A stretch of DNA of 64,000 bases, from positions 9,848 to 73,847 of the forward strand of contig PASR01000012.1 in NCBI GenBank assembly GCA_002713365.1. Direction: 5' to 3'. The notes under the pieces are model-generated. The model was not told the origin of the DNA. It was given only the letters and a program-made list of their open reading frames with translations, and ran no database searches. A program made the position numbers and the translations under genes. The stretch comes from Rhodospirillaceae bacterium (GTDB lineage: Bacteria; Pseudomonadota; Alphaproteobacteria; UBA6615). Below, piece by piece: positions 12,004-32,940 of this stretch (the first letter of the stretch is position 1; each line of letters opens with the position of its first letter).

Positions 12004-12080
12004 TGGTCGGGACGGCAGGATTTGAACCTGCGACCCCCACACCCCCAGTGTGATGCGCTACCAGACTGCGCTACGTCCCG
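12004..12080 (-). tRNA. tRNA-Pro (anticodon GGG)
   Basis: Cloverleaf on the minus strand: acceptor CGGGACG/CGTCCCG, D-arm GCGC-AGTCTGGTA-GCGC, anticodon arm TCACA-CTGGGGG-TGTGG (U33, GGG, G37), T-arm GCAGG-TTCAAAT-CCTGC, discriminator A and an encoded CCA. Confidence 0.9.
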
Positions 12081-29125: not shown

Positions 29126-30337
29126 ATGAACGAAGTTAACAGTTCTTCAAAAAATAATACCAAAAAAAATAACTTTATCTGGCAAGACCCGCTACTGCTT
29201 GATGATTTACTTACAGAAGATGAGAGAATAGTCAGAGATACGGCCAATTCTTATGCCCAAGAGAATCTGATGCCAAGAATTTTGGAGGCAAACCGTCAAG
29301 AAAATTTTGACCGTAATATAATGAATGAAATGGGTAAGCTTGGTTTTCTTGGATCAACTTTACCAGAAAAATACTGATGCGCAGATGTAAATAATGTTTG
29401 CTATGGGTTGTTAGCTAGAGAAATAGAAAGAGTGGATTCAGGATATAGATCCGCCCTGTCAGTTCAATCTTCTTTGGTAATGTGGCCAATTTATACTTAT
29501 GGCAATGAAGAACAGAGAATAAAATATTTACCAAAACTTTCAACAGGGGAATGGATCGGTTCATTTGGCTTAACAGAACCTAATGCAGGATCTGACCCTT
29601 CTAGCATGTTGACAAGGGCCACCAAAACAGAGGATGGATTTTTATTAAATGGTTCAAAAATGTGGATATCAAATGCACCAATAGCTGATATATTTGTTAT
29701 TTGGGCCAAAGACAATGAAAATATTATACGTGGTTTTATTCTTGAAAGAGAAATGAAAGGACTTACAACTCCAAAAATAGAAGGGAAATTCTCTTTACGG
29801 TCCTCATCAACAGGTGAAGTCGTGATGGACAATGTATTTGTTCCTTTTGAAAATAAACTGCCAAATGCACAAGGACTTAGTGGACCCTTTGGATGCTTAA
29901 ATAAGGCTAGGTATGGGATAGCTTGGGGAGCAATTGGAGCTGCCGAGTTTTGTTGGCATGCAGCCCACCAATACACATTAGACAGACATCAATTTGGAAA
30001 ACCTCTAGCCGCAACGCAACTAGTTCAAAAAAAGTTAGCCGACATACAAACAGAAATAACTTTAGCTTTACACGCAAGCTTAAGACTTGGCAGATTAATG
30101 GATGAAGACAAGTCATCGCCAGAAATGATTTCTCTACTCAAACGTAATAATGCAGGTAAGGCACTTGATATAGCAAGATTATCCAGAGATATGCACGGCG
30201 GCAACGGAATATCTGATGAATTTCATGTGATACGTCATCTTATGAACTTAGAGACAGTTAATACATATGAAGGGACGCATGATGTTCATGCCTTAATACT
30301 AGGAAGAGCACAAACTGGAATACAAGCATTTTTCTAA
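29126..30337 (+). pseudogene. gcdH: Glutaryl-CoA dehydrogenase (acyl-CoA dehydrogenase family) interrupted by a single in-frame TGA at 29375-29377
   Basis: ORFs 29126..29377 and 29408..30337 are in the same frame. The TGA falls where the conserved Gly of the ...Y-G-C-A-x-V... segment belongs (...[30 protein letters not shown]...). GGA to TGA is a single-base change. Confidence 0.8.
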
Positions 30338-30341
30338 TAAA

Positions 30342-30596
30342 ATGAATAAAGATCAAGCAATTAACCAACTGCGTTTGCGGTTATTATTATTAATAATAGG
30401 CCTGATATTATCTTATATTATATCGTTTGGTTTAGCCATTTATTTTGTATTTAGTAACAATTATTTTAAGGATGATAATAGCTTATTAATTATATCTATT
30501 GGCATAATTTTACTATTTATGAGTTTTTTACATATCAGATTTCAATATCGAAAATACAGCCTTTACCTTATGAGAGCTCAGAAGCTAGAAGAATAA
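30342..30596 (+). CDS. Hypothetical small membrane protein (2 TM)
   Basis: 84 aa with two hydrophobic helices. Starts 4 nt after the gcdH stop. Confidence 0.4.
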   Translation: MNKDQAINQLRLRLLLLIIGLILSYIISFGLAIYFVFSNNYFKDDNSLLIISIGIILLFMSFLHIRFQYRKYSLYLMRAQKLEE

Positions 30597-30627: not shown

Positions 30628-30656
30628 TTTATCATTACAGTTAATGTATATATAAT
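30628..30656 (+). promoter_or_regulatory. Candidate sigma70 promoter for the TPP-riboswitch/thiOSG transcript (TATAAT at 30651-30656; weak -35)
   Basis: TATAAT lies about 30 nt upstream of the aptamer 5' end. The -35 (TTTATC) is poor. Confidence 0.25.
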
Positions 30657-30684
30657 AGAGTTTTATAAAACTAATATTTTAACA

Positions 30685-30762
30685 ACTGGGGTGTCGCCTT
30701 TTCTAGTCGACTGAGATCATACCCATAGAACCTGAGCTGGATAATGCCTGCGTAGGGAGTAA
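30685..30762 (+). promoter_or_regulatory. TPP (thiamine pyrophosphate) riboswitch, THI element
   Basis: ACUGGGGUGUCGCC...CUGAGA...ACCC..GAACCUGAGCUGGAUAAUGCCUGCGUAGGGAG is a near-perfect match to the THI-box consensus (GGGGUG, CUGAGA, ACCUGAUCUGGAUAAUGCCAGCGUAGGGAA). It sits directly upstream of thiO-thiS-thiG. Confidence 0.9.
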
Positions 30763-30766
30763 AATT

Positions 30767-31915
30767 ATTAATAAATTTTCAAATTCTCAACCTAATGTAT
30801 CTATAATAGGCGCAGGTGTATGCGGTCTAAGTATAGGCTGGCGGTTAGCTAGTGCTGGTTGTCAAGTTAATATATATGAGCGCGGCAAATCTGGACGGGC
30901 AGCTTCTTGGGCTGCTGCTGGTATGTTAGCAGCTGGCGTTGAATGTGAACCCGGAGAAGAAAACCTATTAAAGCTAACAACATTAAGTCAGAAACTTTGG
31001 CCTAAATTTCTTCATGACCTTAGCAAAGACTCTAAACAAAATCCTGAGTATCGCAATGAAGGAACACTTGTTGTTGCTATAAACCGTGATGACGCGACAA
31101 GATTAGAATTCACCTATAATTTTCAAAAGAACCTTGGAATAAACCTTGAATGGCTTGATGGATATGAAACTAGAAAACTTGAGCCTCATTTAAACCCATC
31201 TATCGTGGCTGGCGTATACAGTTCTAACGATCATCAAATAAATAATCGTTTACTTATGAGATCATTAGAGGAAGCCTTTGTTCATAAAGAAGGAATAATT
31301 CACGAGTACACAGAAGTAACTGACATAGAGACACATAATGAATCTGTGAAGGGTATAATAGTTGATGGCTCATTAATAGAAACTGATGTGGTGATTATTG
31401 CAGCAGGTGCCTGGTCTAATAATATAAACGGACTTACTAAGGAATGTATCCCTCCGGTCAGACCTGTTAAGGGACAAATGCTATCATTGAAAATGGAGCA
31501 AAATTCACCGCTATTAAAACATGTAATTTGGGCCCCAAATGCATATTTAGTTCCACGTAATGATGGAAGTTTATTAGTTGGAGCAACTATAGAGGAAAAT
31601 GGTTTTAATCCCGACTTAACAGCTGGTGGAATATTTTCCTTGTTAGAGGCCTCTTGGCGTGTGATACCAAATATTGAAGAGTTACCCATAAAAGAAATGT
31701 GGGCTGGATTCAGGCCAACTAGCAGAGACGATGCTCCAATACTTGGCGCAACAAAGATTAAAGGACTTGTAATGGCAACAGGTCATCACAGAAATGGGAT
31801 ACTTCTAGCACCAGTTACAGCTAACGCGGTAAGTGAATTAATTTTAAATGGTGAAACAACTAAAGAAGTAGAGCCTTTTTCAATAGAACGATTCAATAAT
31901 AACATTGAACATTAA
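30767..31915 (+). CDS. thiO: Glycine oxidase ThiO (FAD-dependent); start probably non-AUG (AUU at 30764/30767), because the ATG at 30923 would remove the FAD-binding GxGxxG motif
   Basis: In-frame extension upstream of 30923 encodes ...NVSIIGAGVCGLSIGWRLASAGCQVNIYERGKSG..., the Rossmann dinucleotide-binding motif. That frame is open back to the stop at 30704 and contains no ATG/GTG/TTG. An AGGGAG Shine-Dalgarno at 30754-30759 precedes ATT codons. Confidence 0.7.
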   Translation: MNKFSNSQPNVSIIGAGVCGLSIGWRLASAGCQVNIYERGKSGRAASWAAAGMLAAGVECEPGEENLLKLTTLSQKLWPKFLHDLSKDSKQNPEYRNEGTLVVAINRDDATRLEFTYNFQKNLGINLEWLDGYETRKLEPHLNPSIVAGVYSSNDHQINNRLLMRSLEEAFVHKEGIIHEYTEVTDIETHNESVKGIIVDGSLIETDVVIIAAGAWSNNINGLTKECIPPVRPVKGQMLSLKMEQNSPLLKHVIWAPNAYLVPRNDGSLLVGATIEENGFNPDLTAGGIFSLLEASWRVIPNIEELPIKEMWAGFRPTSRDDAPILGATKIKGLVMATGHHRNGILLAPVTANAVSELILNGETTKEVEPFSIERFNNNIEH

Positions 31916-31943: not shown

Positions 31944-32156
31944 ATGAATAATTCTAAAATTATTGTGAACGGAAAATTAGAAACATTCACAGCGAAAAAT
32001 ATAAGCGGATTACTGTTACAAAAAGGTATTACGCCAGACATGAAAGGAATAGCTGTTGCTATAAACGGCGTTGTAGTCCCAAGAGACTTTTGGAAAACTA
32101 GAAATATAACATCGGGAGATGAAGTAGAAATTGTTAAGCCTTTCAAAGGAGGGTAA
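31944..32156 (+). CDS. thiS: Sulfur carrier protein ThiS
   Basis: 70 aa ending ...[10 protein letters not shown] (C-terminal GG). Confidence 0.85.
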
Positions 32157-32169
32157 TCGGAAAAGTACT

Positions 32170-32940
32170 ATGTCAGATAAACTTCAAATATCTAATAAAT
32201 ATTTTAACTCCAGGTTATTAATAGGGACTGCCGGATATCCAAATCAGCAGATAATGTTAGATGCTGTATCTTCCAGCGGAGCTGAAATAGTAACTGTATC
32301 TATAAGACGTATTAGCTTAGACGCATATTCAGAAAGTATGATCGACTTAATTGGAGATAAGTATCACCTACTTCCAAATACAGCAGGCTGTGCAACCGTT
32401 AATGATGCAGTTCTTACAGCGCAACTAGCCCGAGAATCACTTCAAACAAACTGGATAAAATTAGAGATAATTGGCGATAGAGAAACACTATATCCGGATA
32501 GTAATCAGCTAGTGATAGCCGCCGAAGAACTCATAAAAGATAACTTTATTGTTCTACCATACTGTACTGATGATCCAATAATATGCCAAAAACTACAGGA
32601 TATTGGGTGTGCAGCAGTAATGCCATTAGGGTCACCCATTGGGTCAGGAATGGGTATTTGCAACCCATACAATATAGAGATGATTTGTAAACGCAGTAAT
32701 GTACCAGTCGTCCTTGATGCAGGAGTAGGTACGGCATCAGATGCCACTTTGGCCATGGAACTTGGATGTGACGCAGTGCTACTTAACTCAGCGGTATCCA
32801 AGTCAATAAATCCGGTAAGCATGGCGAAGGCAATGCGGGACGCCGTAACTGCTGGACGCTTAGCGTCTTTATCAGGAAGAATACCTAAACGTAAGTATGC
32901 AGAGCCATCTAGTCCTCGTCTTGGACTTATAGGTTCATAA
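32170..32940 (+). CDS. thiG: Thiazole synthase ThiG
   Basis: [25 protein letters not shown] ... [13 protein letters not shown] is typical ThiG. I chose the ATG at 32170 over the ORF-track TTG at 32131. Confidence 0.85.

Follow-up and report, generated by a model that had tools for sequence, protein, structure and literature searches.

A TPP riboswitch with the predicted thiO ribosome-binding site in its core and a conserved AUU as the probable start codon

The thiO–thiS–thiG locus

Contig PASR01000012.1 of a Rhodospirillaceae bacterium (assembly GCA_002713365.1), a marine alphaproteobacterium of ~36% GC, carries, within the 64-kb stretch analysed here (the window), a thiamine pyrophosphate (TPP) riboswitch that abuts the genes thiO, thiS and thiG. 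The thiO ribosome-binding site (RBS) appears to be part of the riboswitch aptamer, and the thiO frame contains no ATG, GTG or TTG upstream of the motif that binds flavin adenine dinucleotide (FAD); its start codon is probably an AUU that is conserved in related genomes. An initial annotation, made by reading the letters without database searches, had placed a riboswitch in front of thiO–thiS–thiG, an arrangement borne out by matches to RF00059, TIGR02352, TIGR01683 and PF05690. The features of the locus are as follows.

30677–30775 (+): TPP riboswitch aptamer (THI element), Rfam RF00059, full model 1–105
30753–30759 (+): predicted Shine–Dalgarno (SD) sequence UAGGGAG, part of the aptamer's conserved 3′ core (Rfam alignment)
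30764–30769 (+): tandem in-frame ATT ATT, putative thiO initiation codon(s), from comparison
30764–31915 (+): thiO, glycine oxidase, 383 codons plus the stop at 31913–31915 (TIGR02352)
30809–30826 (+): GAGVCG, the FAD-binding GxGxxG motif of ThiO, 5′ of ATG 30923
30923–30925 (+): first canonical ATG in the thiO frame, encoding internal Met54; not the start
31944–32156 (+): thiS, sulfur-carrier protein, 70 amino acids (aa), GG end (TIGR01683, 54.5 bits; cutoff 37.45)
32170–32940 (+): thiG, thiazole synthase, 256 aa (PF05690, 348.6 bits; cutoff 23)

The aptamer was identified by Rfam covariance-model search with a score of 62.9 bits (gathering score, 54.3; E = 5.7e-10) and is the only riboswitch match in the window. 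Orthologous aptamers at four related loci (L001, L002, L010 and L095) score 64.9–68 bits, and the aptamer exceeds the Rfam threshold in 16 of 20 representative relatives, the remaining four having long P3 insertions. The pyrimidine-sensor CUGAGA lies at 30711–30716, and the pyrophosphate-sensor element (ACCUGA...GCGUAGGGA) is conserved, the arm in the window being AACCUGAGCUGGAUAAUGCCUGCGUAGGGA at 30729–30758. Helices P2/P3 (~30687–30725) and P4/P5 (30731–30756) are both recovered in the minimum free energy (MFE) fold. The optional P3a stem is missing, and the nominal P1 helix pairs 30682–30686 with 30759–30763, with three of the five pairs non-canonical in the Rfam alignment. The initial call of a TPP riboswitch at this site therefore stands, whereas its description as matching the consensus 'almost base for base' does not, given the modest score, the weak P1 and the lack of P3a. 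Across 100 related leaders, the contiguous P1 usually comprises 3 bp at offsets 0–2, and no consistent pairing extends beyond it. The aptamer also contains a three-codon mini-open reading frame (mini-ORF; AUG CCU GCG UAG, 30744–30755) that runs from the P5 loop into P4, out of frame with thiO; its stop overlaps the predicted SD, but it is missing in most relatives and is probably incidental.

Upstream of the aptamer, a consensus scan returned one promoter-like site:

30629–30656 (+): TTATCA-16 nt-TATAAT, 10/12 consensus positions, a weak match by pattern only

The sequence TATATAA(T/G)AGA is kept at this site across the clade alignment. If used, the promoter would put the transcription start ~10–20 nt 5′ of the aptamer. 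Downstream of the aptamer, the consensus scan found no terminator-like site. Two candidate structures beyond the aptamer were rejected. An extended AU-rich P1 enclosing both AUU codons, predicted for 30655–30800 (z = 0.36), is lost when more downstream sequence is included and is not kept in L002. Pairing of the P5 3′ strand (GCCUGCG) with the CGCAGG that encodes part of GxGxxG is likewise not kept in L002, where the latter reads TTCAGGG.

A Shine–Dalgarno sequence inside the aptamer

In the Rfam alignment, U30753–G30756 form the 3′ strand of P4, paired with C30731–G30734; G30757 and A30758 lie in the three-way junction and G30759 makes the first P1 pair. Because of this placement, the predicted SD is aptamer core rather than part of a separate platform. 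The UAGGGAG sequence is invariant in all relatives compared. Nucleotides 30755–30760 are predicted to be paired, with an unpaired probability of ≤0.05 and an opening cost of ~5 kcal/mol. The initial annotation had proposed folding the leader to see whether AGGGAG pairs within P1; only G30759 does so, A30754–G30756 belonging to P4 and G30757–A30758 to the junction.

Beyond the TAG at 30704–30706 the thiO frame is open, and between this stop and ATG 30923, which lies past the Rossmann motif, it contains no ATG, GTG or TTG, as had been noted initially. The two in-frame ATT codons, 30764 and 30767, follow AGGGAG (30754–30759) by 4 and 7 nt, again as first described. Counted from GGGA, their offsets are 5 and 8, and the mode in the family is 7. 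Spacing slightly favours the second ATT, although the choice between the two stays ambiguous; L037 and L048 likewise carry a tandem pair of ATH codons (H being A, C or T) at these two offsets. The initial annotation had regarded this as the only plausible arrangement for initiation. Comparative support for it was found, as described below, but three other in-frame near-cognate codons had been omitted: ATA 30803, ATA 30806 and CTG 30737, the last inside the aptamer.

Read from ATT, ThiO scores 344.7 bits against the TIGR02352 equivalog profile (cutoff 250.8), with profile positions 1–350 of 351 aligned to residues 12–363.

Conservation of ATTATT in close relatives

The nearest database ThiO proteins are 99%, 87% and 82% identical to that of the window, and every one has an aberrant N-terminus. 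P0001 (NCBI) comes from the nearest public relative, GCA_002698185.1, labelled 'MAG: Rhodospirillales bacterium' (MAG, metagenome-assembled genome), and begins at the equivalent of ATA 30806 (MIGAGV...); P0002 (JGI) begins at a TTG within the Rossmann fold and P0003 at an internal ATG.

We compared the underlying nucleotide sequences, which are 98.96% (L001), 99.2–99.3% (L095/L096), 85.8% (L010, of the pair L010/L011) and 80.3% (L002, of L002–L009) identical to the window. GGGAGT-NNN-ATTATT is invariant in all five strains or lineages (the window, L001, L095/L096, L010/L011 and L002–L009). The three bases preceding ATTATT vary (AAA, AGA, AGT and GAA), as do the codons following it, and L002–L009 carry a 3-nt insertion directly past it. 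These assemblies are independent, comprising an NCBI MAG, three JGI metagenome lineages and an ENA contig. The alignment of ortholog 5′ regions that had been proposed as a check on the AUU start thus shows ATTATT kept, and no canonical thiO start in any of these related strains and lineages, which span 80–99% nucleotide identity. At the homologous position, further close relatives have a GTG 4 nt past GGGAG (L014/L015), a GTG (L013) or an ATC (L012), and others have an ATG.

Survey of alphaproteobacterial thiO leaders

To place these leaders in a wider context, we surveyed 80 alphaproteobacterial thiO loci from a genome scan and 80 from a metagenome scan, setting the frame by tblastn and locating the 3′ end of the aptamer by ...AGGGA. 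An aptamer lies directly 5′ of thiO in 130 loci, which represent 113 distinct leader sequences and fall into four classes:

53/113 leaders: canonical start ≤20 nt past GGGA (ATG 42, GTG 4, TTG 7), mostly at offsets 4–13
38/113 leaders: no canonical codon before GxGxxG; an in-frame ATT (20), ATC (16) or ATA (2) at offsets 4–9, mode 7
8/113 leaders: ATH at offset +7 and a much later canonical codon
14/113 leaders: a separate expression platform, in more distant relatives

Altogether, a canonical or ATH start lies 4–13 nt past GGGA in 99 of the 113 leaders, and all 46 non-canonical leaders (38 + 8) have an ATH at offsets 4–9, against a background frequency of in-frame ATH in the surveyed leaders of 0.043. 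ATH triplets at offsets 3–10 are in frame in 55 cases and out of frame in one; among the 55 canonical-start leaders, just 3 carry an ATH there. The ATH codons are tightly spaced, 33 of the 46 falling at offset 7, whereas canonical starts are spread over offsets 4–19. In 23 of the 46 ATH leaders there is no canonical codon anywhere from the upstream in-frame stop to GxGxxG; in 14 of these 23, that stop lies within 30 nt of the aptamer 3′ end (for example, the TAA in GGUAAUACC). Together with the invariant ATTATT, the 38 of 38 leaders with a suitably placed ATH support the rare AUU start first suggested for thiO, and from this comparison we infer initiation at AUU.

The ATH codons also appear to be associated with the aptamer. 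Where no aptamer adjoins thiO (18 loci), the start is canonical in every case, whereas 46 of 101 loci of the direct type lack a canonical start (Fisher p ~1e-4, a statistic that ignores phylogeny). On these counts, ATH starts go with an aptamer-embedded SD. Parsimony on a neighbour-joining tree of ThiO requires no fewer than 10 changes between ATH and canonical starts (~8 gains from ATG and 3 reversals), in addition to 9 cases in which ATT, ATC and ATA interconvert; the tree is rough and the counts ignore phylogeny.

Several observations on the leaders stand apart from the start codon classes. In L017, L021, L024 and L060, GAUGGCG(G) ~26–34 nt 5′ of the aptamer is a perfect complement of (C)CGCCAU(C/U), which spans the spacer and the AUC or AUU start; the feature is confined to one Stellaceae-like subclade, and with an AUU codon a G-U pair replaces G-C. 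A general 5′-flank 'anti-start' helix was rejected, since such complementarity is no better than in shuffled sequence across 97 leaders (mean z ~0). The GAUGGCG(G) segment probably lies between −35-like (CTTGCA) and −10-like motifs spaced by N17, and may be untranscribed. In GC-rich relatives, CTTGCA-N16-18-(C/A)(G/A)A(A/C)AT(T) recurs 35–45 nt 5′ of the aptamer (for example, in L070, L076, L113 and L117), which points to a conserved promoter from which transcription would begin at P1 or immediately ahead of it, leaving an extremely short leader. At the edge of one Stellaceae MAG locus (L026, 2–73, −), a suhB/mmgR small RNA (RF00519, 42.2 bits against 41) was found, unrelated to the thiO start.

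Alternative starts

Among the alternatives to AUU, initiation at ATA 30803 or ATA 30806, just before GxGxxG, fares best, although we regard it as unlikely. ATA is a near-cognate codon, the 99%-identical P0001 is annotated from ATA 30806, and ATA 30803 is kept in all five lineages. That conservation is explained by the protein, however, because both codons encode hydrophobic β1 residues (xVxIIGxG) that are internal in every relative with an upstream canonical start. ATA 30806 is moreover GTA in L010/L011, no SD-like sequence is present 5′ of the ATA codons, and the TIGR02352 profile begins at V12, 5′ of both. A start at either ATA would also leave unexplained the invariant ATTATT at SD distance and the presence of ATH in 38 of 38 leaders.

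A start inside the aptamer, for example at CTG 30737, or reinitiation after termination on the mini-ORF, whose stop overlaps UAGGGAG, is very improbable. The frame is indeed open from 30707 and CTG 30737 is in frame, but this codon lies in the P5 helix with no SD 5′ of it, and many relatives have a stop in the thiO frame 5–17 nt before the aptamer 3′ end. As for reinitiation, the AUG and UAG of the mini-ORF are gone in most relatives (AAUACCAGCGAAGGGAG), in which ATH is nonetheless kept.

Less credible still is a ThiO that starts at ATG 30923 and has no N-terminal FAD-binding motif. This ATG is the first canonical start, and gene callers chose it for both the window ORF and P0003. The resulting protein would begin at TIGR02352 position 43, losing 64 bits, whereas the codons upstream match positions 1–42. 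Over the 38 codons from GxGxxG (GAGVCG) to the internal ATG, we counted 19 synonymous and 5 non-synonymous differences to L002, and 14 and 1, respectively, to L010. By this measure, the stretch 5′ of ATG 30923 is translated and under purifying selection, and because it varies mostly synonymously, a truncated ThiO can in practice be excluded. A flavoenzyme of the DAO family without its β1-GxGxxG element is not expected to bind FAD.

Finally, the idea that ATT is a sequencing or assembly error in an ATG, raised in the initial annotation, or a recent inactivating mutation that makes thiO a pseudogene, can be dismissed: ATG to ATT is a single G-to-T change, and another G-to-T change in the window creates a TGA in an acyl-CoA dehydrogenase gene, but the identical ATTATT occurs in independent assemblies at 80–99% nucleotide identity, thiO is under purifying selection throughout, and dozens of distant relatives have the same layout with ATC, ATT or ATA.

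Neighbouring genes

That TGA, at 29375–29377, is in frame and splits a glutaryl-CoA-like acyl-CoA dehydrogenase gene into two ORFs (29126–29377 and 29408–30337). L001, which is 99% identical, has GGA (Gly) at this codon, a single G-to-T change away, and its gene is intact at 403 aa. We take the TGA to be either a nonsense mutation specific to the strain or an error in sequencing, rather than recoding. An alternative genetic code or widespread sequence errors were rejected because table 11 leaves the other long ORFs of the window, 50 or more, intact and because L001 has GGA at the TGA site.

Between this gene and the riboswitch lies a small hydrophobic ORF of 84 aa (30342–30596, +) with no Pfam match. 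An ORF of 84–89 aa occupies the same place in all syntenic relatives (L001, L002, L010, L012 and L014), down to 59% ThiO identity, and thus encodes a conserved protein. Synteny around thiO–thiS–thiG is unchanged in all related loci, and thiG has 256 aa in the syntenic loci. The only other structured RNA in the window is a tRNA gene at 12007–12080 (−; Rfam tRNA, 64.4 bits).

Proposed mechanism

We consider it likely that the TPP riboswitch gates translation of thiO–thiS–thiG by direct occlusion of the RBS, with thiO starting at AUU. In this mechanism a short leader would carry the riboswitch, with no separate expression platform and no terminator. The purine-rich 3′ core of the aptamer, UAGGGAG, would serve as the SD, next to a P1 of 2–3 bp, and thiO would start 4–7 nt past the SD at an AUU, which initiator tRNA would read inefficiently. 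In the TPP-bound state, the SD would be locked into the folded aptamer by P4 and P1, and the 30S subunit could not bind; when TPP is scarce, the aptamer would open often enough for weak initiation. We propose that the start codon is the only tunable element of such a leader, because the aptamer hard-wires a strong SD at near-optimal spacing, which cannot be weakened without loss of ligand binding. The use of AUU, the occlusion of the SD in the TPP-bound state and the selection of a weak start are all steps that we infer.

Several points weigh against this interpretation. P1 in the window has only two Watson–Crick pairs, C30686–G30759 and A30685–U30760. The MFE of the AT-rich leader is no better than that of shuffled sequence (z = 0.36) and predicted leader structures shift with construct length, such that in silico folding of this leader is weakly informative. 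A recognisable SD core precedes only about one third of the genes in the window, and this organism thus does not generally rely on SD-led initiation. Within the clade, purifying selection is not seen on the leader peptide that separates ATT from the Rossmann strand, where every difference is non-synonymous. The surveyed sequences are phylogenetically related, and the raw counts therefore overstate their independence. All relatives with an ATH start that were found are MAGs or metagenome contigs, those from the genome scan being MAGs throughout; a tblastn search of PLSDB plasmids for a cultured organism with such a thiO start gave only Azospirillum thiO, of the ATG class. Finally, AUU, AUC and AUA (collectively AUH) initiate at ~1–2% of the level of AUG in Escherichia coli (10.1101/063800), because of which ThiO expression would be very low; other measurements of such near-cognate initiation give 5–7.5% (PMC5499595).

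A tentative extension, which we hold with more doubt than confidence, is that in Alphaproteobacteria in which a TPP aptamer adjoins thiO, selection at the third position of the start codon favours 'anything but G', a weak AUH codon subject to proofreading by initiation factor 3 (IF3) serving to lower ThiO. The AUH codon may also buy the aptamer time to prevail kinetically over the 30S subunit, which would sharpen the switch. The drift of the third base among U, C and A, the few reversals to G and the tight spacing of ATH fit selection for a weak start but do not prove it.

Comparison with known systems

The arrangement resembles 'direct translation attenuation', in which the RBS lies inside the conserved core of the TPP aptamer (Barrick & Breaker 2007, Genome Biol 8:R239, PMC2258182). 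As in that class, the thiO leader has neither a terminator nor an SD-sequestering hairpin, AGGGA would double as the RBS, with the start a few nucleotides further on. It differs from the class as described in that the gene is alphaproteobacterial thiO and that ~40% of the surveyed leaders appear to start with AUU, AUC or AUA, because of which pipelines that depend on the start codon would misclassify thiO leaders. A 2024 review places TPP riboswitches under 'strand exchange' (PMC10907184). This is the mechanism of E. coli thiM, in which a downstream platform pairs with a separate SD ahead of an AUG start (PMC1920254). The thiO riboswitch shares the RF00059 family with E. coli thiM and thiC, which are TPP-dependent OFF switches acting on translation of thiamine genes, but, unlike thiM, it has its predicted SD within the aptamer, a P1 of 2–3 bp and an AUU start.

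AUU-initiated bacterial genes on record include infC, which encodes IF3, pcnB and Enterococcus faecalis ebpA (ATT) (10.1101/063800, PMC5499595, PMC4447247), infC and pcnB being the only confirmed non-canonical starts in E. coli (10.1101/063800). Like these genes, thiO has a conserved near-cognate start behind a good SD, an arrangement usually read as giving low expression or sensitivity to IF3. The gene family is another one, ThiO being a glycine oxidase. Unlike the infC type, the putative thiO start is coupled to an RBS that is predicted to be ligand-gated, and across lineages its third base may be U, C or A; nor is there any sign of IF3 autoregulatory logic at thiO.

In gene content, the locus resembles the thiazole-branch genes of thiamine synthesis in Bacillus subtilis and in Rhizobium (thiCOSGE in the latter), with which it shares the ThiO, ThiS and ThiG families, the thiO–thiS–thiG order and THI-element control. 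In Rhizobium the aptamer precedes thiC, whereas in the window thiO is the first gene and abuts the aptamer.

Significance and annotation

The aptamer and the operon are ordinary, and an aptamer-embedded RBS is already known; the conserved AUH start is apparently new. Searches of the full-text-searchable literature, which leaves outside subscription-only papers such as Rodionov et al. 2002 (J Biol Chem), turned up neither a thiO with a non-AUG start nor any TPP-regulated gene in which the riboswitch is combined with a non-canonical one.

The consequences for annotation are visible in the databases. Standard gene callers accept ATG, GTG and TTG only, and ThiO is therefore mis-annotated: ~14 of the 120 closest database homologs have artefactual N-termini. 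Some are truncated within or after the Rossmann motif (P0002, P0003 and P0110); others begin at a β1 codon before GxGxxG (an Ile codon in P0001, P0012 and P0098, and similarly in P0030, P0035 and P0095); and others are read through the riboswitch (P0006, P0019, P0060, P0064 and P0090), the aptamer being translated as ...PIEPDL...EGS.... These N-termini fit a failure of gene callers on non-canonical starts. Classifiers of riboswitch mechanism that rely on annotated starts will likewise mis-assign such leaders.

If the tentative extension to selection for a weak start is correct, thiO would be subject to two-layer translational control, a ligand-gated RBS combined with a near-cognate start, that arose independently ~8 or more times, and these leaders would rank among the largest natural collections of bacterial genes with a conserved AUH start. 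Verified non-canonical starts in bacteria are very few, and the thiO family offers a natural system in which to ask why weak starts are selected and how start-codon strength relates to riboswitch gating.

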